The notes: generated from the sequence alone by a model not told the origin. Shown: positions 13,258-25,350, counted from the stretch's first letter. The stretch is DNA of 64,000 nucleotides from an uncultured Lentisphaerales bacterium (GCA_964417715.1 CAYQJG010000001.1:29297-93296); one strand, 5' to 3'. Numbers and translations: made by a program.

Positions 13258-14397
13258 CTACACGAGGCGCCGCAGGACCAACAGCGCGGCGGCCAGCAGC
13301 AGGAAGACGACGCCCAACAGCAGTTTGGACGGCACAACGTGCTTCCTGGTCCAGTCGGTCAGCTGCTCGGTCTTCAGTCCGAACGATACCAGCGCCAGAA
13401 CAACCAGCAAGGGCATCACGAAGAGCGCATTGTAGAGCGCCAGCAATCCCCAGGCGGCATACCGTCCCTCGCGACCCATCAGCACGAGTGTCGGGGCGTA
13501 AGTCTGTCCCGAGCACACGCCCTCCAGCACCGTCACCAGGACACCTGCCACCAGGCCGGCCCCGACCACACTGGACACGGTCACGCTGCGGCGCAGCACG
13601 GTGTGGATCCGCCGCTTGATGCCGGCCGGCAGTTGCAGGCTGACATCGGCGGCGCGGCCGGTGTGCGCGTAGCGCCAGGCATCCCGAAAGCTGAGCAGCG
13701 CCAGCACCACCAGCACACCCACGGTCGCCAGCTCAATCACCCGCCTCACCACCAAGAACCCCCGCAGCGCGTGGAGCGCCTCGAGCAACCCGAGTCCGAT
13801 CACAAAGTAGGTCACGTACGAGGCGCCGGCGAACGTCAGTCCCAGCGCCAGTCGCGTCCGACGGCTGGCACCGACTTGGGCCAGAACGGACATGAAGAAC
13901 ACGAGGGTCGTGATCGCGCAGATGTTCAGACCGTCGGCAAGTCCGGCCAGAACAACGGCGCCCAGCGTGAAATCGGCATAGCGCCGGGCCACGGCCGCAT
14001 CAGCCGGTGGCACCACAAGCCCACCTGGAACCTCACCCGCCTGTCGCGCGGCGATCGCCGTGACCAGCGCGCGGTCAGCCCCGGCTTCGATCTCGGCCAC
14101 ACCGGCCAGCAGCGTGCGGTTGTCGACCAGCAGGTAGACCGTGGCATTGGCGCGCCGCTTGAAGCGCTCCTCGGTGGCCACGAGCGCCACGTAGTTCGAT
14201 TCCGCGTTCAGGTCGCGTTCGATCAGATCGAACTGGCCCTCGTATCGGGCGGTCAGGTCAGGCAGCACATGCGCTTCAACGTACGCACAATCGGCACATC
14301 CCGGTTCGCGAAAGAAATCGACCCGCACCGGAGACAACGCCGGTTCGGCGCGAACACCTGCCACAAGCAGCGCAGCCCAGGCGAGCAGTCCCATCAT
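13258..14397 (-). CDS. CcdA/DsbD-family thiol-disulfide membrane protein with an N-terminal periplasmic CxxC (CADC) domain
   Basis: Signal peptide MMGLLAWAALLVAGVRA, a CADC motif, then a polytopic domain with conserved Cys residues in two TM helices (…GLNICAITTLV…, …VLEGVCSGQTYAPTL…). Start trimmed to ATG at 14397. Confidence 0.4.
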   Translation of the reverse strand: MMGLLAWAALLVAGVRAEPALSPVRVDFFREPGCADCAYVEAHVLPDLTARYEGQFDLIERDLNAESNYVALVATEERFKRRANATVYLLVDNRTLLAGVAEIEAGADRALVTAIAARQAGEVPGGLVVPPADAAVARRYADFTLGAVVLAGLADGLNICAITTLVFFMSVLAQVGASRRTRLALGLTFAGASYVTYFVIGLGLLEALHALRGFLVVRRVIELATVGVLVVLALLSFRDAWRYAHTGRAADVSLQLPAGIKRRIHTVLRRSVTVSSVVGAGLVAGVLVTVLEGVCSGQTYAPTLVLMGREGRYAAWGLLALYNALFVMPLLVVLALVSFGLKTEQLTDWTRKHVVPSKLLLGVVFLLLAAALLVLRRLV

Positions 14398-14580
14398 GCG
14401 CGTTCGTTTCACGCCGCATGGATACCACAGCGTGCCCGCAGCGTCAACCGGATGGCGATGCATAAGCGAGGCCAAGCAAGCATGCCCGTAAACATGCAAC
14501 CGATTGCCAAAGCCCCACTCGCGGCTGGACGGATTGCATCTGTCCCGCCCTCGTCCATAGCGTCGAGCCATCCACATCCC

Positions 14581-14775
14581 AACCCGCGCGTGCGGGCCGC
14601 ATCAATCACGCTGGCGCGCCGCTCGCAGACCGCGCCGCAGGCCGTCACACGGTCCGCGACGCGGAGTCTATCCATCACCTGTCGATATTATCCCGCCTCT
14701 CGGTCGCCTCGGTCCCTCCCGCCCCGTCGCGGCCCATCTGCACCTTCCGTTCACCGAATCGTGTCACACACGTTG
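14581..14775 (+). repeat. Intergenic direct repeat, copy 1 (~190 bp), left flank of the AT-rich R-M islet
   Basis: Begins AACCCGCGCGTGCGGGCC…CACGCTGGCGCGCCGCTCGCAGACC…GGCCGTCACACGGTCCGCG…CCATCACCTGT. About 85% identical to copy 2 over the first ~100 bp, with similarity continuing for ~190 bp. Confidence 0.6.
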
Positions 14776-14806
14776 TGAGTGAACGGAGAGCGAACCGCGC
14801 AGCGGG

Positions 14807-15751
14807 TCACTCGCACGTTCGACTCACTTGTTGGGTGATGTACTCTGCTCTTTCCTCCAAGAGCATCATCTGCTCTGGCTTTGGTTCCTGCCCATGATTA
14901 TGTTTCTGGATGTTTGCCGGAAAGTTGAAAACCAGCGCCTCAACTACAGACCTACGGTTTTCGATCCTTCCTCCAGAATGGTAGAAATGGTCTCGCGTCA
15001 CGATGTTGAACTTTCTCCAAAGCGAATCAATGAAGGGATTGGAACGATAATCGTTGTGGTGCCAAGTCGAGAGTATGAACCGCGCCGGCGAGGTCGAGAG
15101 GAGCATAAACAGTCTCTCCTCATCCTCTTCCTTCCATCCGCTATAATAGTCAACATAGCGCCCGATGTAGGGCGGATCGCAGTAAATGATGTCGTCTTTG
15201 GTCGCTTCGGCAATGGCCGCCGCGAAATCCTCGACACTGAACGTCCATCCCGACTGGATCAGACACGCAACATCATGCACCTGATTCACGATCTTCGTCA
15301 CGTATGCCGGAGCGAACCGTTCTGGTTTCTGACAAAATGGTATATTCCATCCCCCTTTCCGGTTAAACCTCATCATCCCATTGAACCCGGCACGGGAGAG
15401 AAAGAGGAAATCCAGCGGGTCATGTGACTGGTTAAAACGATCTCTGACGGCTCGGAAGTGCTCGTACCCCTTGTCCGGTGCTTTTTCAAGCAGCGCCCCT
15501 TCACGCTCGAGGTACTCGCGTACACATCTCGGTGTGATCTCGCGGTTCTTGATTGCTTGGTAGAACCGAATGAGGTGGGGGTTGACGTCGCCCAGCAGTG
15601 CCTCGCGAAAACCAGAGTTGAAAGCGACAACTCCGGTTCCGAGGAAAGGTTCAATCCACCGGCCCTTAACGACTGGCACTAGCGCCTGAATCCAAGGCAC
15701 CAACTTCGTCTTAATGCCTTGACTCTTGATCGGGGGGGTAATCACGCGCAT
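14807..15751 (-). CDS. Dam-family (alpha-class) DNA N6-adenine methyltransferase
   Basis: Motif I-like EPFLGTGVVAFN and the catalytic DPPY motif (IIYCDPPYIGRY). It lies in a markedly AT-richer segment than the flanking DNA and overlaps the downstream nuclease gene. Confidence 0.8.
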   Translation of the reverse strand: MRVITPPIKSQGIKTKLVPWIQALVPVVKGRWIEPFLGTGVVAFNSGFREALLGDVNPHLIRFYQAIKNREITPRCVREYLEREGALLEKAPDKGYEHFRAVRDRFNQSHDPLDFLFLSRAGFNGMMRFNRKGGWNIPFCQKPERFAPAYVTKIVNQVHDVACLIQSGWTFSVEDFAAAIAEATKDDIIYCDPPYIGRYVDYYSGWKEEDEERLFMLLSTSPARFILSTWHHNDYRSNPFIDSLWRKFNIVTRDHFYHSGGRIENRRSVVEALVFNFPANIQKHNHGQEPKPEQMMLLEERAEYITQQVSRTCE

Positions 15752-16674
15752 ACTGCCTCGGCGGTTTTAGTCTTCTTCTTCGTTGTCATCGGCACAATCC
15801 TGCGTTTGTCCCCACGTTTGAAGTCGAGAAAGTCCTTGATTGACCTGATCGGAGATGCCTTGCCTCTCTTCAGACGCGAAGTGACTCCGTGGTTCATCCA
15901 GTATTCGTCAAACCACTCCTCCCCGAGTCGAGCGAAGACGCCGTTTCCGCTTAGTATGTCTTCAATCCAAGTGATCGACCCGATGTTTGCGGTGTTGCCA
16001 GAACCTTGCTTGTCGCTTGCGAGACGCCACTTCTCGCAAACAAAGAATTGGAAGTCCCGGACCACGGAAGCAATTGACCGAAGGTTGTCAACAGAAGTCA
16101 CGCTGTAACGATGAGTTGGTTCGGCAACTGGACCATCCTCCAACTCCTTGACATGGACAATTTCAGTGTCGGCCAAGTCCTTTGCCGCAGTTCTCGTGTA
16201 GATGATTCCCAGGCAGAAGTGACCGGAGTACTCCGAATATGGAAATTGGATGTTCTTAGTGGACGTTCGCTCCTTGAAGTAGGCGCCGTGGCTGCCGAGT
16301 GTGAACCCATTTACGTGGCCGGGGAAATCCGGATCGCGGTACGTAGTCTTAAGGTCAACAGCAAACTTGACGGTCTGGTTGCTCTGCTTGACAAAACTGA
16401 AGTCAGGATACCAGTTCTGGTGTTCGGCCAGGACGATCGAATACCCATTGTCCTGGGCGAACTGGAGAATCCTCGGGAAGAGGTGGATCTCAAGGATTTT
16501 GGAGACGATCTTAGTGTCGGAACTGATTGTGTAAATGTTCTTGAAGATGTCGATAAAACCCTTGACCGTCCACTGCCCGTTTTCAGCCGAAACATACCCG
16601 CCAAGTCCCCTAACGAAATCCGTCAGGGCGTCCGAAAACGCTTCCTTTTCCGTCTGTCGCTCTTTGTTGTTCAT
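15742..16674 (-). CDS. Putative Type II restriction endonuclease (PD-(D/E)XK-like), partner of the Dam-family methylase
   Basis: Same strand as the methylase, with a 10-bp overlap, and the same AT-rich composition. A candidate PD…DLK motif (WYPDFSFVKQSNQTVKFAVDLK) is present. Recognition specificity (GATC?) is not determinable from sequence alone. Confidence 0.5.
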   Translation of the reverse strand: MNNKERQTEKEAFSDALTDFVRGLGGYVSAENGQWTVKGFIDIFKNIYTISSDTKIVSKILEIHLFPRILQFAQDNGYSIVLAEHQNWYPDFSFVKQSNQTVKFAVDLKTTYRDPDFPGHVNGFTLGSHGAYFKERTSTKNIQFPYSEYSGHFCLGIIYTRTAAKDLADTEIVHVKELEDGPVAEPTHRYSVTSVDNLRSIASVVRDFQFFVCEKWRLASDKQGSGNTANIGSITWIEDILSGNGVFARLGEEWFDEYWMNHGVTSRLKRGKASPIRSIKDFLDFKRGDKRRIVPMTTKKKTKTAEAVCA

Positions 16675-17190
16675 TTGGTCCTTTTCATCTTCTCACTCAC
16701 CATTGAATAGGTGGCCAGACGCAATCCACCGGTTCGAGGGGGTTAACAGCGCCGATACACACGGTTCATTCTATTCTGAAGAACGGTACGAGGTCAAACT
16801 CCCGTGACAACAACTCACAACTTGCGTACCGGCAATAACTTACGAGTCTGCCGCCCCGACGAATGGCGCAGTTCGCGATAGTGACGTCATGCCCGGCCAG
16901 GCGGTGCGTAACGGCCGGACGCGATCCACGGGTGAAACGATATGAGTTCGACGCAAGCCACTGACCTGCATGACGTTGACTCCTATTGGAAAGTCGGAAT
17001 CTGGTGGACGACAGGCACCGCCCCCACTTCCTGCGATGGCTCCAACGGTTCCTGTCGGGGCCTTGGGTGCCTATTCCGATGGTTTAGCGGGGTCAAGCGG
17101 GAGTTCTCGGCCCAAAACTGCGAGAGTTGGGCGCGACACCTGTTCACGCGGCGCACTCGGGGCTCGCGCTCTGGATCGGACGAATCGCTC

Positions 17191-17375
17191 AACCCGCGCG
17201 TGCGGGCCTCAGCCGTCACGCTGGCGCGCCGCTCGCAGACCCGGCGCGGGCCGTCACACGGTCCGCGCCGAGGATTCCATCACCTGTTGCGTTTGCCTCG
17301 CGCGTCGTTCGCGTCGTTTCGCCCCGTCCAGTTGTGGTCCATCTGCGCCTTCAGCACCCACTCACGCAAGTACTT
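17191..17375 (+). repeat. Intergenic direct repeat, copy 2, right flank of the R-M islet, ~105 bp upstream of the next + strand gene
   Basis: Homologous to copy 1 and to copy 3 across ~185 bp. A separate 23-bp match (AAACTGCGAGAGTTG-GCGCGA) at 17117 recurs at 20795. Confidence 0.6.
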
Positions 17376-17479
17376 CTCACAAGACCGGAACGGGCGACGC
17401 CCCCGTTGACACCCGTCCCGATTCCTGCTAGCTCTATGTCCACATATCCGGCGCAACCCGTCAAGGAACCTGACCTGCC

Positions 17480-18658
17480 ATGTCCCCTTCATCCAGTACC
17501 GTATCGTCGCGCTTCGCGCACGTCACGCTCGTCGACCCCGCCAGCACGTTCATCGCTCCGGACGTGGACGCCGCCCGGATCGCACCCGGCAGCGTGATCC
17601 ATCCGGGCTGCCGGTTGTCGGGGGCCACGCTGTCGATCGGCCCCGGCTGCATCCTCGGCGAGGAGGGACCGCTCACCGTGCGCGACTGCCAGTTGGGCGC
17701 ACGGGTACGGCTGGGTGGCGGCTTCTTCGACCATGCCACGCTACTGGATGATGTCAGCGGCGGCAACGACGCACACGTACGTCCCGGCTGTCTGTTCGAG
17801 GAAGCCGTCACGTTCGGACACGCCGCCGGTTTCAAGCAGACGATCCTGCTGCCGTTCGTCACGACCGGCAGCCTGATCAACTTCTGCGATTGCCTGATGG
17901 CGGGCGGCACCAGCCGCCGCAACCATTCCGAGGTCGGGTCGTCCTTCGTGCACTTCAACTACACGCCTCATCAGGACAAGGCCACCGCTTCGCTGATCGG
18001 CGACGTCGCGCACGGCGTCCGGCTCGATCAGGCGCCCATCTTCCTCGGCGGTCAGGGCGGTCTCGTCGGGCCCATCCGCATCGCGTACGGAACAGTGCTC
18101 GCGGCCGGCCAGATCACCCGGCGGGACGTGACCCAGGCCGACCGGCTGATCCTGGCACCCGGCGGGTCGCCCATCGACCGGCCTCACGCGCCCGGCCGGC
18201 GCAGCGGCCTGGGCCGTGTTGTGGCCAGCAACCTGATCTACATCGGCAACCTGCTCGCTCTCGATCAGTGGTACCGTCACGTGCGCGTGCCCCGCCTGGC
18301 GGGCGCGCCCTGGCAAGCGGCCTGTTGCATGGGCGCGCTGTCCCGGCTGAGCGAAGCCTGTGAGGAACGCCTGAAGCGTCTCGACGAACTGGTTGCGTCG
18401 GTCGCCGCCCGACCCGACGCCGATGCATCGGGCAGCCGCCTGGCCGCCGGCTGGCCGGCTATCCGGCACGCCCTGGCGGATCACATCGCCGCGCGTACAC
18501 GCACCCCCGCGCCCGCGTGGGCCGTGGCCGCGCTTCAGATCATACCTGACGGCGACTACCTCCGCGGCGTCCAAAGCCTGCCGGCTGAGGTGAAGTCGGC
18601 CATCACGGCCGGACTCCAGTCGCGGGTCGACGACGTCGCGTCCCTGTGGCAGGTGTAG
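17480..18658 (+). CDS. Left-handed beta-helix (hexapeptide-repeat) protein, putative acyl/acetyltransferase (GlmU-C/LpxD-like fold)
   Basis: Multiple imperfect hexapeptide repeats (…VRLGGGFFDHATL…IFLGGQGGLVGPIRIAYGTVLAAGQ…). ATG at 17480. Confidence 0.55.
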   Translation: MSPSSSTVSSRFAHVTLVDPASTFIAPDVDAARIAPGSVIHPGCRLSGATLSIGPGCILGEEGPLTVRDCQLGARVRLGGGFFDHATLLDDVSGGNDAHVRPGCLFEEAVTFGHAAGFKQTILLPFVTTGSLINFCDCLMAGGTSRRNHSEVGSSFVHFNYTPHQDKATASLIGDVAHGVRLDQAPIFLGGQGGLVGPIRIAYGTVLAAGQITRRDVTQADRLILAPGGSPIDRPHAPGRRSGLGRVVASNLIYIGNLLALDQWYRHVRVPRLAGAPWQAACCMGALSRLSEACEERLKRLDELVASVAARPDADASGSRLAAGWPAIRHALADHIAARTRTPAPAWAVAALQIIPDGDYLRGVQSLPAEVKSAITAGLQSRVDDVASLWQV

Positions 18659-18665
18659 CCGCAGC

Positions 18666-19778
18666 CTACACGGCCAAACCGTCGACGAACCGCTGGAAGT
18701 CGCCTTCCTGCTTCTCGATCGAGCGCGCCAGCGCGAACTGGTTGCGGCACCGGCTCAGGTTCTGGTCCGGGCGGTGGATGCGGAAATACACGTCGCCCTG
18801 CAGATAGTCGGTCAGGAACCGCACGCCGCACTCAAACGTCATCAACTTGCCGCTGAAGGCCAGGTGCGCCCGTTCAGCCGGCACGAGGAAGTCGGCGGCC
18901 TCCACGTAGCCGCGCGCCAGCGCCTCGAAGATCTCGCGCCGGCTGTGAACGACCGCACTGTCGCGTTCATCCTCGGCGGCGCTGTTGGTGGCGGCACGCA
19001 CCATGTCGCCGAAATCATAGAGGGCCAGCCCGGGCATGCAGGTGTCGAGGTCGATCACGCAGATGCCCTCGCCCGTGGCCAGGTCGATCAGCACGTTGTT
19101 GATCTTGGTGTCGTTGTGTGTGACGCGCTCGGGGATCTCCTTGCGCGCGCACAGGTCCAGCAGCACACCGGCCCACCCCTCGTGCGCCAGTGCGAAATCG
19201 ATCTCGGCCCTGACCTCGCGGGCGCGGCCATGCGTGTCCTCGCGCACGGCCTGCTTCAGCGCGGCTACGCGGCGCCGGGTATCGTGGAACCCCGGAATGG
19301 TCTCGTTCAGGCGCGCGCCGGGCAGGTCCGCCAACAGGCGCTGGAACCGGGCGAAGGCCCGTGCCGCCTCATAGGCATCGGACGGCCGGTTGACGCGATC
19401 GACCGTGTGCACGCCGTCGACGTAGACGTACATCCGCCAGCACAACCCCGATTCGTCCGTATGGTAACAGCCGCCCTCGCAGGTCGGCACGAGCTGGATG
19501 GCGCGTCGCGAGGGATCCTCGGCGCATTCGCGTTCCAACCGCCGGCGCGCGTGGCGCGTGATGCCCGTGATGTTGGACATCAGCGCCGCGGGGTCGCGGA
19601 ACACGCGCGTGTTGATGTGCTGAAGCGTGAAGAACACCGTTGGCCCGCCATGGCTGGCCACGACCTTGAATGTGTCGTTGATGTGCCCCGTGCCGAACGG
19701 CTCGGCCGAACGGAAATCGGACCGCGTGTCAAAGCGGTTGAAGATGGACCGCAAATCGTAACCATGTGGAGCCGTCAT
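18666..19778 (-). CDS. APH-family phosphotransferase, probable anomeric sugar kinase (N-acetylhexosamine-1-kinase NahK / AmgK-like)
   Basis: GTGHINDTF N-terminal motif and HNDTKINNVLID / VIDLD catalytic loop of the aminoglycoside-phosphotransferase-like kinase fold. Start trimmed to the ATG preceded by a GAAAGAGGGA SD; the track start is a GTG 9 codons upstream. Confidence 0.6.
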   Translation of the reverse strand: MTAPHGYDLRSIFNRFDTRSDFRSAEPFGTGHINDTFKVVASHGGPTVFFTLQHINTRVFRDPAALMSNITGITRHARRRLERECAEDPSRRAIQLVPTCEGGCYHTDESGLCWRMYVYVDGVHTVDRVNRPSDAYEAARAFARFQRLLADLPGARLNETIPGFHDTRRRVAALKQAVREDTHGRAREVRAEIDFALAHEGWAGVLLDLCARKEIPERVTHNDTKINNVLIDLATGEGICVIDLDTCMPGLALYDFGDMVRAATNSAAEDERDSAVVHSRREIFEALARGYVEAADFLVPAERAHLAFSGKLMTFECGVRFLTDYLQGDVYFRIHRPDQNLSRCRNQFALARSIEKQEGDFQRFVDGLAV

Positions 19779-19801
19779 ACGAACACATCCCTCTTTCTCA
19801 C

Positions 19802-20725
19802 TCACGCCCAGAGCCGGGCCGGGTAGGCCCCGGCCGCCACCAGTTCGCCCAGCGCGGCCGCCACCCGCGGCCGGTCCTCACGGTACGTGACGCCGAACCA
19901 GGGGCTGTCGCTTGTCAGGACACGCACGGTGGCGCGTCCCTCCCGGACCAGTTCGTTGACGACCAGCGGAATGTACCACTCGCTCTTGGGTTCAGCGCCG
20001 TGGGCGGCCAGCCAAGCCGGAAAGCGGGACTCCAACAGCGCGAACAACGCAGGCGTGAACCCCCAGATGTTCATCGAGACGGGTTCATCGCCGGCCAGGC
20101 GCACGGGTGCGTTCGGGTCGGCCTGATTCTCGGCCCCACCCGGCACCGGCACGATCCGCGTCATCTCGGTCACCGAGGTCAGCATGCCCCCGGCATCGAC
20201 GCAACACACGCCGCGCGCGACGCTGCCATATGCGGAGAGTGTCTGCCGCAGACGATACCCGACCATCGCGAGCCGCTCCGGGCCACCGGATGCCCCGGGC
20301 GCCTCCGCGAGGAAGCCGGCCAGGCGCTGGAAGGCCTCTAACCCGTAGAAGTCATCGGCATTGATCATGGCAAACGGTTCGCGCACGATTCCTCGCGCCG
20401 CGCGCACGGCGTGCGCGGTGCCCCACGGTTTGGCCCTGTCGGCCGGCACCCGGAAGCCGCCCGGCAGGTCGTCCGCGCGCTGGAAAGCGTAATCGACGTC
20501 GATGCGCCCGGCATAGCGTCCACCGATGCGGCTGCGAAACTCATCCTCGAAATCGTGCCGGATCACGAACACGACCCGCCCGAAACCGGAGCGGATCGCG
20601 TCATAAACGGCATAGTCCATGAGCGTTTCGCCGGAAGGGCCGACCGGCTCGACCTGCTTCAGGCCGCCATACCGGCTCCCCATGCCCGCCGCCAAAACAA
20701 GAAGTGTGGGTTTCATGCACTCCAT
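19802..20725 (-). CDS. Sugar-phosphate nucleotidyltransferase (MurU/GlmU-N-like NTP-transferase)
   Basis: MKPTLLVLAAGMGSRYGGLKQ glycine-rich N-terminus of NDP-sugar pyrophosphorylases. Start trimmed (MECMKPT…); the track extends ~100 codons further into GC-rich noncoding DNA. Confidence 0.65.
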   Translation of the reverse strand: MECMKPTLLVLAAGMGSRYGGLKQVEPVGPSGETLMDYAVYDAIRSGFGRVVFVIRHDFEDEFRSRIGGRYAGRIDVDYAFQRADDLPGGFRVPADRAKPWGTAHAVRAARGIVREPFAMINADDFYGLEAFQRLAGFLAEAPGASGGPERLAMVGYRLRQTLSAYGSVARGVCCVDAGGMLTSVTEMTRIVPVPGGAENQADPNAPVRLAGDEPVSMNIWGFTPALFALLESRFPAWLAAHGAEPKSEWYIPLVVNELVREGRATVRVLTSDSPWFGVTYREDRPRVAAALGELVAAGAYPARLWA

Positions 20726-21249
20726 TCGCTGAATACGGGGCCAAACGAAAGGCCTGAATATATACCAACCGCTTCGCCGCATGCAACCCGTCGCTCCCCC
20801 CGAAACTGCGAGAGTTGCGCGCGAGGTGGGCGGAAGGCAGCCGCACGCGCGCCCGAGAGCCTGCCGGAGGTGCCGGAGCGACCGACACGCGGCGCTATCG
20901 ACCGTTCTGGGGACGGCGACGGGTAGCGGTCTCCACGACCTGCCCGGCCGTGCGTCCCAGATCGATCTGCCGCAACGCGCCCAGATTCGCGTCGCACGCA
21001 CCGGGCAGTTGCATGCCCCGGAACGCACGACTGGCCGCCGCCACGCCGCCCAGTCCGGTCACCAACCCCGCCATCGGCTCGGGTGAATTCTCGTATGGAA
21101 TCTTCCACTGGGCAGGAGTTGTTGTGCGCATGTCCGCTTGATATCAATCCACACTTGATATGGCCAAGCAGAACATTCTGTCCCCTTCAGCCCCTATTTG
21201 CAGCCGCTTCCTCAATGCGCGCTCCATACTTTCGAAAGTATGGCAACTG

Positions 21250-21470
21250 AACCGGCGCCTCCGTCCTGTCGGCGGCGCGTTCGCAGACTCCGGCGCGGGC
21301 CGCCACCACACTCACCTGTCCTCCCGGCACACCCGCGCCGCTGATTACATCCATCATCTGTTGAGGTTATCACGCGCGTCGGTCGCATCGTTCTTTCCCG
21401 TCCAGGTGCGGTCGATCCGCACCTTCCGCACGCACTCGTGCAACAGCTCTCGCAGAACGGGGACAGCGCA
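21250..21470 (+). repeat. Intergenic direct repeat, copy 3 (diverged, with a ~30-bp insertion), ~90 bp upstream of the M23 peptidase gene
   Basis: …GGCGGCGCGTTCGCAGACTCCGGCGCGGGCCGCCACCACAC…CCATCATCTGTTGAGGTTATCACGCGCGTCGGTCGCATCGTTCTTTCCCGTCCAGGTGCGGTC… aligns with copy 2 (…CCATCACCTGTTGCGTTTGCCTCGCGCGTCGTTCGCGTCGTTTCGCCCCGTCCAGTTGTGGTC…). Confidence 0.55.
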
Positions 21471-21561
21471 CGGTGCTTGACGCGACGGCGCCCATGCAGA
21501 AGAATGGGGCGCCTCACATCACCCGGCCTGAGCGCCGGGGCAAACGCATCGGCACCCGCAC

Positions 21562-22737
21562 ATGGACTTCTTCGAACCCGCCCCTCTTCGCACACCCATC
21601 CGCCCTGATCCCGCCGTCCGCCGCCGCCCGTCGCCAACCTTGGTCGTGGCGTCCCTCGCAGGACTGCTCCTTGCAGCCGGGGTCGTCTGGCTCGGCCCCT
21701 GCGGCCGGCACAAGCCGGGAACACCTGCCACACCGCCATCCGCGGCAGGCGGGACCGACTCCCCTGGCACCCCACCCCAGCCCGCGCTCCCGTCGACGCC
21801 GCTGTGCTTTGCCTTTCCCACGCCGCGCCAGAACCTGGCCGACACCAACACGCCCGGCACATTCATGCCAACCGTGTCCGGTCGCGTGGGATCGGCCCTG
21901 TTCGGCCTCGTGCGCACATCCAGCAGCGGCGGGCCCGCCTTCCACGAGGGAATTGACATCGCGCCGGTGGCGCGTGACCGGCAGGGCCAGCCGACCGACT
22001 CCGTCTTCGCCGTTGCCGAAGGAACCGTGGGCTACGTCAACCGTGTCGCCGGCAACTCCAACTACGGACTGTATGTCGTCATCGTGCACGTTGAGCCCGT
22101 TGGCGAGTTCTACACGCTCTACGCCCACCTGGCCCGCGTCGAGCCCGCCATCCGCGCGGGCACGGTGGTGCGCATGGGCGACACACTGGGTCAGATGGGA
22201 CACACGCCGGCCGGCATCCTGCCGGCAGCCCGCGGCCACCTGCACTTTGAGATCGGGCTGATCCAGAACAGCCGATTCGACCGGTGGTACCGCGCGCAGA
22301 AGCTGACGCCCGACCACGGCCTCTTCAACGGCCAAAATTTCGTCGGCATAGACCCGCAGACCATCTACCGCGAATGGAACAGGGACCACCGCTTCGCGGT
22401 GCTCGAGCACCTGCGGAGCGCGCCGCCGGCGTTCACACTGCTGGTCGCCGCGCGCCAGCCCATCAACTTCTTCACGCGCTATCCCGCGCTCTGGCAGGGC
22501 GAGGCCTTCCGCCCGGGCGTCGTGGTGCTGGACGTGGCCGAAGGCGGCGTACCGATCGCCGGGCGGATGGCCACGGATGCGGAACTCGCGGCCGCCGGCA
22601 CGCGCCGCCCGCCGTTGGTGCTGCAGGTCAGCACCGACCCGACGCTCCCCGCCCGCCGACTCGTCACACGCGGCAGAGACAACACCTGGCGTCTCTCCGC
22701 CTCCGGCACGAAATGGCTGGAGATCCTGCTCTACTGA
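21562..22737 (+). CDS. Membrane-anchored M23-family (LytM-type) metallopeptidase
   Basis: N-terminal TM helix, a Pro-rich linker, then HEGIDI…GHLHFE zinc-binding motifs of M23 peptidases. Confidence 0.75.
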   Translation: MDFFEPAPLRTPIRPDPAVRRRPSPTLVVASLAGLLLAAGVVWLGPCGRHKPGTPATPPSAAGGTDSPGTPPQPALPSTPLCFAFPTPRQNLADTNTPGTFMPTVSGRVGSALFGLVRTSSSGGPAFHEGIDIAPVARDRQGQPTDSVFAVAEGTVGYVNRVAGNSNYGLYVVIVHVEPVGEFYTLYAHLARVEPAIRAGTVVRMGDTLGQMGHTPAGILPAARGHLHFEIGLIQNSRFDRWYRAQKLTPDHGLFNGQNFVGIDPQTIYREWNRDHRFAVLEHLRSAPPAFTLLVAARQPINFFTRYPALWQGEAFRPGVVVLDVAEGGVPIAGRMATDAELAAAGTRRPPLVLQVSTDPTLPARRLVTRGRDNTWRLSASGTKWLEILLY

Positions 22738-22817: not shown

Positions 22818-23438
22818 ATGATTGCCAGTCACGTTCACGACGCGCTCTCGCAAGTCCGGTTGCTGCAGGAAGTCATCCTGGAACGCCGGCGTTTTCATGG
22901 CTTCTCCGGACAGGCGCGCGCGGTCAGCGGCTGCGTCACGCTGCTGGCGGCGACGCTGCTCGCGAGCGGCCGCCTGCCGGACACGCCGCGCGCGCACCTC
23001 GCGGTCTGGGGCGGCGTGCTGCTCTTCGCCCTGGCGGCAAACTACGCCGCGCTGGGCTGGTGGTTTCTCGCCGACCCGCAGCGGCGGCGCGACCTGCTCG
23101 CGCTGAAGCCGGCCATCGACGTCATGCCCGCGCTGGCCGTGGGCGCCATGCTCACGCTGGCCGTGTTGCGCGACGGCCGGTACGAGCTGCTCTATGGGGT
23201 CTGGATGGGTTGCTACGGCCTGGCCCATGCCGCCTGCCGGCTCTCGCTGCCGCCCGCCAGTTTTGCAGTTGGCGTCGGCTACATGCTGGCCGGCGCAGCC
23301 TGCCTGTTCGTGCCCGGGTGGGCATTCCCAAACCCGTGGCCGATGGGCATCATCTTCTGCACCGGCGAGTTCGTCGGCGGCTGGGTGCTGTTCCGCGAAC
23401 GCTACGCCGCGCTGCATGTCAAGGAGGTCCAAGCATGA
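22818..23438 (+). CDS. Hypothetical integral membrane protein (about 5–6 TM helices)
   Basis: ATG at 22818 is preceded by GGAGG at −5. Hydrophobic segments run throughout. It overlaps the downstream regulator by 5 bp. The track's 384-aa ORF is an upstream over-extension into the M23 gene. Confidence 0.45.
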   Translation: MIASHVHDALSQVRLLQEVILERRRFHGFSGQARAVSGCVTLLAATLLASGRLPDTPRAHLAVWGGVLLFALAANYAALGWWFLADPQRRRDLLALKPAIDVMPALAVGAMLTLAVLRDGRYELLYGVWMGCYGLAHAACRLSLPPASFAVGVGYMLAGAACLFVPGWAFPNPWPMGIIFCTGEFVGGWVLFRERYAALHVKEVQA

Positions 23439-23797
23439 GCGACCCGCTCGAACGCATCTTCCACGAACCCAACCGCCTGGCGGTCATGTCGCACCTCGCC
23501 GCGGCGGCACAGGGGCTCACCTTCCCTGCCCTGCGCGACGCCTGCGGCCTGACGGACGGCAACCTCAACCGGCACCTGAAGGCGTTGGAGGAGGCAGGAG
23601 CCGTCTCCTGCGCGAAGCAGTTCGTGAAACTCAAGCCCCAGACCACCGTCCGCCTGACCGCGGAGGGACTCGCGCGCTTCAGCGATTACCTCGTCGCCCT
23701 TGAGCAGGCGCTCAAACAGGCCCAGCGCGCGCTGAAGCCGCACACGAAGGCCGCCAGCGCGCGACACCTGCCACATGGCGCCTTGGCGAACACATGA
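23434..23797 (+). CDS. Winged-helix transcriptional regulator (HTH_34 / ArsR-like small regulator)
   Basis: FHEPNRLAVMSHLAAA…LTDGNLNRHLKALEEAGAV…KPQTTVRLTAEG. AGGAGG lies 7 nt upstream of the ATG at 23434. Confidence 0.6.
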
Positions 23798-23910: not shown

Positions 23911-25350
23911 ATGCAAACACCACCCACCGATCCTCTCGCCTCGCCCACCGCGCCGCTCTTTCCGCCCACTCCACCGCCTCTCGCACCACGCCCGGCGTCG
24001 TCCGGCCGCCTGGCCTTCGGCCTCAAACTCGTCTGCATCGGCGCGCTCGCGCTGCTGCTGCTGGCGCCGCTCAGCATGATCGGCTCACGCCTGCAGGAAC
24101 GCCTCGGGCGTCGCAACGAAGCGATCCAGAACATCACCGCAACCTGGGGCAGCGAGCAGACGGTGGTCGGTCCGATCCTGGTCGTTCCCTACCGCAGACC
24201 CGTCAAGGTCAACCGCGAACGAATCGTGGACGGCCGGCGGATGTCGGTCGACGAAACGGACTTTGTCACGTCGCGGGCCTATTTCCTGCCGTCCGAACTG
24301 GCGATCCAGGGGACGCTCAGCCCAAGTCAGCTCCACCGCGGAATCTACACCGCCACGGTCTACCGGGGCGACCTGGCCGTATCCGGCACGTTCGCGCCGC
24401 CGAACCTCAAGGAACTCAAGATCGATCCGGCGTTGGTGCAGTGGGAGGATGCGGCCGTCGCGATGGCCATCACGGACCTGCGCGGCGTGCGCGATGCCCT
24501 GACGCTGACTTGGGGAGCCAAGCCGCTGGCGCTGCTGCCGGGCTCGCGCCTGCTGGGGCTGGCGTCGACGGTGCAGGCGCGGCTGGAAGGCGAGGCGTTC
24601 GCCGAAGCGGTGCCGGTGCCCTTCACGCTCGCGCTCGCGCTGAACGGCAGCGGCGACATCCGGATGGCGCCGCTCGGCGCGCACACGCGCATCGCGCTCG
24701 AGTCGACCTGGCCGTCGCCAAGTTTCCAGGGCGCCTTCGCCCCGGCCACGCGCAGCATCGACGCGTCCGGCTTCAAGGCCGAGTGGCAGATGTCGTACTA
24801 CGGCCGCACCTACCCGCAGTCCTGGACGGACGCCGAGCCGGGAAGTGCCGTCGACGCCGGCACGCTGGCGTCCTCGGCCTGCGGCGTCAGCCTGGTGACG
24901 CCGGTCGACAGCTACCGGCTGGTGGAACGGTCCATCAAGTACGGCGTGCTGTTCGTGGTGCTGCTCTTCACCGGGTTCTTCCTGTTCGAGACGCTGGCCG
25001 GGCTGCGCATCCACCCGCTGCAGTACCTGCTGGTCGGTGCGGCGCTCTGCCTGTTTTACCTGGCGTTGCTGTCGCTCTCGGAGCTGATGTCGTTCGGCTG
25101 GGCCTACCTGGCGGGCGCGGTTGCATCCAGCGGGCTGACGATCTGCTACAGCCTGGCCGTGCTCGGAAAGTGGCGGCGCGCGGTCGTGATCGCCGCGGAA
25201 CTCGCCGCCATCTACACCTTCCTCTACACCACACTGCGCCTGCAGGACTACGCACTGGTGTTCGGCACGGCCGGGTTGTTCGTCGCCCTGGCAATCGTCA
25301 TGTACACCACCCGCCGGGTGAACTGGTACGCGCAAGGCGCGGCCAACTGA
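23911..25350 (+). CDS. creD: Cell envelope integrity inner-membrane protein CreD family
   Basis: 479 aa with an N-terminal TM helix, a large periplasmic region and C-terminal multi-TM helices. The overall architecture and length match CreD. Confidence 0.65.
   Translation: MQTPPTDPLASPTAPLFPPTPPPLAPRPASSGRLAFGLKLVCIGALALLLLAPLSMIGSRLQERLGRRNEAIQNITATWGSEQTVVGPILVVPYRRPVKVNRERIVDGRRMSVDETDFVTSRAYFLPSELAIQGTLSPSQLHRGIYTATVYRGDLAVSGTFAPPNLKELKIDPALVQWEDAAVAMAITDLRGVRDALTLTWGAKPLALLPGSRLLGLASTVQARLEGEAFAEAVPVPFTLALALNGSGDIRMAPLGAHTRIALESTWPSPSFQGAFAPATRSIDASGFKAEWQMSYYGRTYPQSWTDAEPGSAVDAGTLASSACGVSLVTPVDSYRLVERSIKYGVLFVVLLFTGFFLFETLAGLRIHPLQYLLVGAALCLFYLALLSLSELMSFGWAYLAGAVASSGLTICYSLAVLGKWRRAVVIAAELAAIYTFLYTTLRLQDYALVFGTAGLFVALAIVMYTTRRVNWYAQGAAN

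Follow-up and report, generated by a model that had tools for sequence, protein, structure and literature searches.

What are the noncoding repeats that stand in the long intergenic regions beside several peptidoglycan genes of an uncultured Lentisphaerales bacterium? In a 64-kb stretch of its DNA (GCA_964417715.1, CAYQJG010000001.1:29297-93296; hereafter the window, with positions counted from its first nucleotide), a first-pass annotation had marked three noncoding repeats of about 200 bp at 14581, 17191 and about 21250, and had proposed that they are a dispersed promoter or operator module, a structured 5' leader or small RNA (sRNA) family, or a MITE-like element (MITE, miniature inverted-repeat transposable element). 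The repeats themselves are confirmed here by a repeat finder and by nhmmer, and their noncoding character by the GC content at third codon positions (GC3) and by Pfam. The promoter module fits best among the proposals, and we hold, with about as much confidence as doubt, that they represent noncoding DNA from promoter regions, present in paralogous pieces, and are neither RNA genes nor transposons. The word "dispersed", nonetheless, says too much, as all five members of the family are confined to 7 kb and to two or three intergenic regions close to one another.

Three full copies with mosaic identity

The repeat finder, applied to the window, gave three full copies on the + strand, c1, c2 and c3, each of about 210 nt. 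With a hidden Markov model (HMM) built from these three, nhmmer placed c1 at 14581-14788 (E 5e-58), c2 at 17191-17399 (E 7e-61) and c3 at 21251-21470 (E 2e-52), and no fourth full copy was found in the window, the next match having an E value of 0.12. The limits adopted here are 14580-14790 for c1, 17190-17400 for c2 (17190-17445 with its promoter part) and 21249-21470 for c3 (21249-21515 with its promoter part).

A MAFFT alignment of the copies covers about 210-230 nt, in which the identity is a mosaic and differs block by block. The left block (about 90 nt), which holds a GC-rich inverted repeat, is 89.5% identical between c1 and c2, 65% between c1 and c3 and 71% between c2 and c3. The middle block of 77 nt (TCCATCA...CCTTC; TCCATCAYCTGT...GCRCCTTC) is 71-78% identical in every pair, and in spite of these 22-29% substitutions it has no insertion or deletion (indel) in the three copies, unlike the flanking blocks, which carry several. 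The tail is 64% identical between c2 and c3, whereas that of c1 is 34-50% identical to the other two and near random; the left and middle blocks of c1 are intact, and its overall identity to c2 is about 77%. The left boundary of c1 and c2 is sharp and falls at CAACCCGCGCG in both.

The central GC-rich inverted repeat (CGGCGCGGGCCGT/ACGGTCCGCGCCG) is found at 17242-17270 in c2, at 14633-14661 in c1 and at 21291-21340 in c3, where 21 nt are inserted between the arms. A single insertion of about 30 bp had been ascribed to c3; instead, this copy differs from c2 by those 21 nt, which enlarge the loop of the central hairpin, by a further insertion of 4 nt and by a deletion of 11 nt near the 5' end. 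An internal duplication within the unit was rejected, the left and right halves being unrelated.

Both c2 and c3 precede genes on their own strand, namely those of a hexapeptide-repeat protein and an M23 peptidase, as had been noted; the gaps, formerly put at about 100 bp, are about 80 nt (c2) and 92 nt (c3) from the repeat end to the start codon. The copy c1 is the only one without a + strand gene downstream, and a restriction-modification (R-M) cassette on the - strand comes next. In the annotation of the Joint Genome Institute (JGI), an 88-aa gene on the - strand (14409-14678) extends into the left block of c1. No family matches it, the corresponding frame is lost in c3, and in all probability the repeat was here mistaken for a gene.

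The two intergenic regions, 16675-17479 and 20717-21561, are indeed unusually long, and they are noncoding. Open reading frames (ORFs) in them and in the repeats have a GC3 of 0.73-0.75, as against 0.82-0.87 in the flanking genes, and gave no credible Pfam match (two were at chance level, with E of 0.15-0.21, far under the curated cut-offs). A profile of the shared + frame, searched against 1.84 billion representative proteins, hit low-complexity or repetitive sequences only. When the copies were compared in six frames, a bias by codon phase appeared in one of the three pairs (c2-c3, with 8/22/25 mismatches by phase) and in neither pair involving c1. A protein-coding fragment or small ORF was rejected on these grounds. 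Comparison of the flanks in six frames and as DNA, furthermore, revealed nothing similar except the repeats themselves, the rest of the intergenic regions being without similarity at either level.

Two inverted partial copies

A 23-bp box, thought to be separate from the repeat, had been listed at 17117 and 20795. It does recur at two sites, which are 17115-17136 and 20803-20824 (shuffled sequences give an expectation of zero matches), and, read on the opposite strand, is the repeat's own 3' segment; in that orientation the box runs GCAACTCTCGCAGTTTCGGGG, the counterpart of GCAACAGCTCTCGCAGAACGGGG with which c3 ends on its 3' side. With at most three mismatches, a 22-nt pattern derived from c3 matches just these two boxes in the window, where 0.06 matches are expected. 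Also, the reverse complement of 20780-20892 aligns to the right half of c3 (c3 positions 124-231) with a score of 24, compared with 12 +/- 1.6 and a maximum of 16 for shuffles.

Since the box is an inverted 3' segment of the repeat, two further partial copies can be added on the - strand: namely, c4 (about 20739-20892), identified by the local alignment to c3, and c5 (about 17057-17165), which shares with c4 31 nt at 87% identity; as parts of these copies, the box takes up 20799-20824 in c4 and 17111-17136 in c5. The family thus consists of five members within 7 kb, three full and rightward (c1, c2 and c3) and two truncated and leftward (c5 and c4). While c5 stands back to back with c2 and points toward the R-M cassette, c4 lies about 360 nt from c3. 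The first-pass annotation had overlooked both this nature of the box and the bracketing of the acquired R-M cassette by c1 and c2.

From four promoter-proximal segments (c2, c3 and the reverse complements of c4 and c5), assembled by eye and by local alignment, we built a module HMM. In the window it finds its four members (E 2e-19 to 3e-13) but no further site (next best E 3.8), c1 being unmatched; the E values for c4 (9.5e-17) and c5 (3e-13) are those of training members and so are not independent evidence. The promoter modules, the inverted partners among them, are 37-59% identical overall.

Promoter-like sites beside the copies

In all copies except the decayed c1, a conserved box is found 19-23 nt upstream of a -35-like hexamer. 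In c3, the box CAACAGCTCTCGCAGAACGGGG (21441-21462, the box ending at 21455) is followed 21 nt on by TTGACG-17-AAGAAT (21477-21505), and the M23 gene starts at 21562. A degenerate box TTCTCACAAG at 17374-17383 in c2 is followed after 22 nt by the -35-like TTGACA (17406-17411), with the start of the GlmU-C-like hexapeptide gene at 17480. On the - strand, the box of c5 lies 21 nt from TTGACC (17096-17091) with a poor -10 and no obvious gene, and that of c4 lies 19 nt from the -35 element TTGCAT (20786-20781), which is separated by an 18-nt spacer from the -10 element TATATT (20762-20757) of the murU-like gene starting at 20716. No promoter-like site was found upstream of the copies. Reading the box as a site for an extracytoplasmic function (ECF) sigma factor or sigma-54 was dropped by eye, the spacing and the -10/-12 elements being unfit.

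The best evidence comes from the murU site. In two related species (contigs L014, 2200-2320, and L017, 85-202), whose murU-amgK DNA is 76-79% identical to that of the window, the nucleotide similarity ends at the murU start with a sole exception upstream: GGTTGCAT-18 nt-ATATATT, which does not vary and is equally far from the ATG in each, so that TTGCAT-18-TATATT is unchanged in all three. This promoter is very probably ancestral and real, judging from its conservation. The repeat DNA of c4 accordingly lies upstream of a promoter and not in a 5' untranslated region or leader, if the murU promoter is what it appears to be; for c2, c3 and c5, a position upstream of promoters is suggested by matches to the consensus only.

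A perfect 20-bp palindrome, CCATACTTTCGAAAGTATGG, occupies 21224-21243 and abuts the left end of c3. It had been recorded at 21227 in a shorter form, which exists at 21225-21242 and extends to the perfect 20-mer. The palindrome occurs only once in the window, c1 and c2 lack an equivalent, and it may be an operator. In the lower-GC stretch between c4 and c3 (21139-21243), TTGATAT is also present twice as a direct repeat, at a distance of 17 nt; the first of the two overlaps the sole EcoRV site within 14-22 kb (21140-21145).

Neighbouring genes and their relatives

To the right of c2 lie the GlmU-C-like gene (17480-18658, +), which in NCBIfam matches the acetyltransferase half of GlmU only (model positions about 250-440), and on the - strand an AmgK-like kinase of the APH family (18666-19778) and the MurU-like nucleotidyltransferase (19802-20716). 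The combination of a GlmU-C-like protein with a separate MurU-like protein and an APH-family kinase has the look of a gene set for a split GlmU-like function or for peptidoglycan recycling. Homologues that their sources label UDP-GlcNAc pyrophosphorylase, without any Pfam domain, number in the thousands. The M23 gene (21562-22737, +; Pfam Peptidase_M23) was called by JGI with 290 aa, from near 21865; the start at 21562 is supported by relatives (66-72% identity) that extend over all 391 aa. Downstream of it are a 206-aa protein without family match, an ArsR-like winged-helix regulator of 120 aa (23435-23797) and a CreD-family membrane protein (23911-25350); the regulator is a candidate for binding to the repeats. 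At the other end, a putative secreted protein without family match, with an N-terminus that resembles a signal peptide by eye, is encoded at 13258-14397 on the - strand.

Homologues of the flanking proteins carry labels of Kiritimatiellia or Kiritimatiellae metagenome-assembled genomes in their sources, which would make the window part of an uncultured member of this PVC lineage. In the closest relatives (66-72% amino acid identity for the GlmU-C-like and M23 proteins), both genes follow other genes at a distance of 10-45 nt, with no long spacer or repeat upstream, and in the nearest other species the gene order differs from that of the window. Upstream of murU, furthermore, relatives have a divergent tRNA-Pro(CGG) gene about 160 nt away (L014, 2084-2160), where the window has c4; no tRNA gene exists in the 64 kb. 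The DNA upstream of the murU promoter therefore appears to have been replaced in this lineage, and the other upstream contexts of these genes in relatives imply that the contexts here are new, with the repeat at those junctions. Four independent contigs break inside the tRNA-Pro gene (the starts of L015, L016, L017 and L018). Contig L014, which comes from the same JGI sample, also has two RVT_1 reverse-transcriptase ORFs (358-1625) upstream of the tRNA-Pro/murU locus, which may be a split group II intron or a retron-type reverse transcriptase.

The R-M cassette between c1 and c2

The cassette (14807-16674) consists of a gene for an EcoRV-family endonuclease (16674-15742; Pfam E 1e-107) followed in tandem on the - strand by that of a D12-class N6-adenine methyltransferase (15751-14807; E 4e-41), with an overlap of 10 nt. 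It has a promoter-like site of its own, TTGACC-18-TAGAAT, at 16797-16768 on the - strand. The GC content of the pair is about 50% compared with about 67% in the flanks, which marks the pair as horizontally acquired; its GC3 (0.63-0.66) is higher than the GC content at the first (0.49-0.56) and second (0.39-0.40) codon positions, which suggests that it is partly ameliorated. The sequence GATATC is not avoided in the window, where it occurs 9 times against 5.1 expected. Matches in plasmids or phages were weak and at the coding level only.

As the cassette occupies the place where the downstream gene of c1 would be expected, it is bracketed by c1 and c2 as direct repeats with a spacing of 2,610 bp. 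The two R-M genes, without a mobility gene, thus sit on a low-GC segment of 2.4 kb between direct repeats of about 210 nt.

Occurrence in other assemblies and collections

We scanned 185,579 species-representative genomes, JGI metagenome contigs and the 2.9 million viral contigs of IMG/VR with three degenerate signatures of the unit, the source strain itself evidently being outside the scanned DNA collections. The genome contigs gave one chance match (Paracoccus), the metagenome contigs eight, and the viral contigs none; nhmmer detected no family member in 20 retrieved loci. As judged from these searches and from the window, the family is low in copy number and has been found only in this strain.

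The same strain (99.9% nucleotide identity) is present in other assemblies, and all of its retrievable contigs carry the R-M cassette, no empty site having been found among them. Contigs of the strain in three assemblies (GCA_041443025.1/JGI 3300059473, JGI 3300045131 and Logan SRR21424279) end inside both repeat-bearing intergenic regions, at 17019, 17161-17173, 20895 and 21275, and one contig of 3,735 nt corresponds to 17161-20895, a stretch bounded by c5 at its inner end and by c4 at its outer end. These ends could come from population heterogeneity or from GC-rich hairpins that were poorly covered. We considered that the 3,735-nt contig might be an invertible or excisable segment and set the idea aside, for its assembly is generally fragmented and has another contig end within lysS (13071).

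Discussion

The regions 16675-17479 and 20717-21561 look like paralogous two-way promoter regions, with c5 and c2 diverging in the former and c4 and c3 in the latter. A full unit comprises the left block with its GC-rich inverted repeat, the indel-free middle of 77 nt and a tail ending in the box CAAC..CTCTCGCAG...GGG, the last placed 19-23 nt upstream of a -35 hexamer of the sigma-70 type. The fixed spacing between box and hexamer, the indel-free block and the loss of the tail only in c1, the copy without a gene, suggest a constraint at the level of DNA. From this arrangement we infer regulator binding and co-regulation: the box, centred near -60, and the middle block would act as DNA, either as a platform for a common regulator or as an upstream promoter element, and a shared platform would put the GlmU-C-like gene, the murU/amgK-like pair and the M23 peptidase gene, all of which act on peptidoglycan, under similar control. 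As for the order of events, promoter DNA would have been duplicated in local rearrangements ("promoter propagation"), after which patchy gene conversion or uneven constraint would have produced the mosaic identity, leaving c1 as an orphan with a decayed tail and the oppositely oriented R-M cassette in place of a downstream gene.

Several observations weigh against this reading. No candidate regulator is linked to the box, and CTCTCGCAG, taken by itself as a 9-mer, shows no significant enrichment (3 observed, 1.0 expected). The promoter calls are consensus matches except for that of murU, the -10 elements of c2 and c5 are poor, and the murU promoters of relatives lack the box. Equal spacing among homologous copies, moreover, is not independent evidence of function, and with only five members in the 64-kb window, all within 7 kb, neutral decay of a local duplication is possible.

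A bolder form of the same reading is that the unit is a portable, lineage-specific two-way promoter/operator cassette, copied to new junctions when peptidoglycan genes left ancestral operons, so that the GlmU-C-like, MurU/AmgK and M23 genes came under one regulator binding the CTCTCGCAG box and the 77-nt block, and that it also served as a landing or recombination site for the R-M cassette. We regard this full scenario as unlikely.

Homologous noncoding DNA upstream of non-homologous genes in one genome has been described as putative mobile promoters, in families that mostly have two members, with a criterion of at least 80% identity over at least 50 nt in the interval from -50 to -150 (Matus-Garcia, Nijveen & van Passel 2012, PMC3488235). 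Likewise, c2, c3 and c4 precede the non-homologous GlmU-C-like, M23 and murU-like genes, the neighbouring coding sequences are also unrelated, the family is small, and the suggested role is to supply or rewire the transcription of relocated genes. The identity of 64-78% here, in contrast, is under that level: between c2 and c3 it reaches 78% across the 94 nt from about -204 to -111 and is 64% in the tail (-150 to -80). The best-kept block is about 110-210 nt from the start codon, and not in that interval. Two of the members, furthermore, are truncated and inverted, and all are within 7 kb.

Insertion with long target duplication by R-M units was reportedly described by Nobusato in 2000 and by Furuta in 2010. 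By such an event the cassette itself would have made c1 and c2 when it inserted at a single ancestral repeat upstream of the GlmU-C-like gene, reducing the family to c2 and c3 plus an insertion scar, which we consider possible but somewhat unlikely. The structural criteria for these events are homologues of R and M genes in less than 20 kb, with no other mobile genes, between direct repeats of more than 30 bp (PMC2853133), and here a type II R-M pair of foreign composition, without mobility genes, stands in less than 20 kb between repeats of more than 200 bp. Also consistent with it are the left blocks of c1 and c2, which are closer to each other than either is to c3, their common sharp boundary, and the GC3 of the pair, which is compatible with long residence and hence with diverged flanks. 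The published cases, however, show near-identity of the repeats, whereas c1 and c2 are only about 77% identical, and the middle block of c1 is no nearer to c2 than to c3. The insert would, in addition, need to carry c5, whose box matches those of the host copies c4 and c3, and no empty site was found among the retrievable contigs of the strain. The repeat has other local members (c3, c4 and c5, within 4 kb) instead of being a single target, which corresponds to the class of "chance insertions between repeated sequences" in PMC2853133. The low identity, the presence of c5 inside the would-be insert and the nearby members favour insertion or substitution between pre-existing repeats.

A serious rival, although we think it unlikely, is that the repeats are functionless relics: local segmental duplication or rearrangement would have copied an intergenic region two or three times, the copies would now be decaying, and their proximity to promoters would be incidental. 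This would accord with the few copies confined to 7 kb, their identity of 63-78%, the absence of the repeat upstream of the orthologous genes of relatives and the absence of exact matches to the three degenerate signatures in the three public collections beyond chance. It accounts poorly for the 77-nt block, which has stayed free of indels in three copies while its flanks have not, for the box and its spacing to the -35 hexamer kept in c3, c4 and c5, and for a tail that is lost only in the copy without a downstream gene.

Correia elements and promoter-bearing MITEs are short intergenic repeats able to bring promoter elements to neighbouring genes. The present repeats, which are likewise short, intergenic and close to promoter elements, might be remnants of a non-autonomous mobile element of this sort, or insertion sequence (IS) ends with outward promoters, recombination between which led to rearrangements; we judge this improbable. 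The copies do occur where the gene order departs from that of relatives, the inverted pairs are oriented outward and have -35-like hexamers close to where they end, and termini of mobile elements have been listed as a main route of promoter mobilisation (PMC3488235). Nonetheless, the copies have only internal hairpins and no terminal inverted repeats in common, no target-site duplication is recognisable at them, and no transposase or integrase is encoded among 23 genes of the window scanned against Pfam (including every gene from about 5.8 to about 35 kb). The five members in the 64 kb are 37-90% identical to one another, with the inverted partners at the lower end of that range, the collection scans gave chance matches only, and there is no sign of a high copy number. 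A MITE-like element, as had been proposed, is therefore not supported.

Cis-regulatory leaders such as the ydaO/c-di-AMP riboswitch are found upstream of peptidoglycan hydrolases, and here, too, a noncoding element stands before genes of a cell-wall hydrolase and of precursor synthesis. In favour of a structured RNA are the GC-rich hairpin, which all three copies retain, whose loop accommodates 21 additional nt in c3 and which is the only hint of a role as RNA or single strand, some substitutions in a second stem that are by eye compatible with G-U pairs on the + strand, and the folding of the c3 region, slightly better than that of shuffles (z = -2.1). A 5' leader, riboswitch or sRNA family is, however, very improbable, because no Rfam family was matched, either in the 64 kb at the gathering threshold or in 14380-21600 at E <= 10, RNAalifold gives an unfavourable covariation term for both strands (+1.7 on +, +2.6 on -; a weak test with three sequences) with 3 of 53 and 7 of 63 pairs compensated on the + and - strands, c2 folds unremarkably (z = -0.6), c1 has no downstream gene on its strand, and the promoter-like sites, including the conserved one of murU, lie downstream of the repeats and none upstream.

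In conclusion, the family fits known phenomena, namely the reuse of promoter DNA and R-M cassettes between direct repeats, and is a local curiosity and not a new kind of element; its present value is that of an annotation note and a small test case, not of a discovery. The presence of the R-M cassette between family members adds a further case to the debate on how such units are moved when they carry no mobility genes, whether through duplication of the target or through insertion where repeats already flank the site. The murU-like promoter, invariant across three species in unalignable surroundings, offers a rare comparative handle on a sigma-70-type promoter in Kiritimatiellia. If the modules are reused promoter/operator DNA, they would be a natural example of relocated genes gaining new transcriptional control, involving three peptidoglycan functions that in relatives are inside other operons or behind a different upstream region, in a phylum for which there is almost no knowledge of promoters or regulators. 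Should the reading as a portable cassette be true, furthermore, the locus would document the assembly of a regulon by promoter propagation in the poorly studied Kiritimatiellota.

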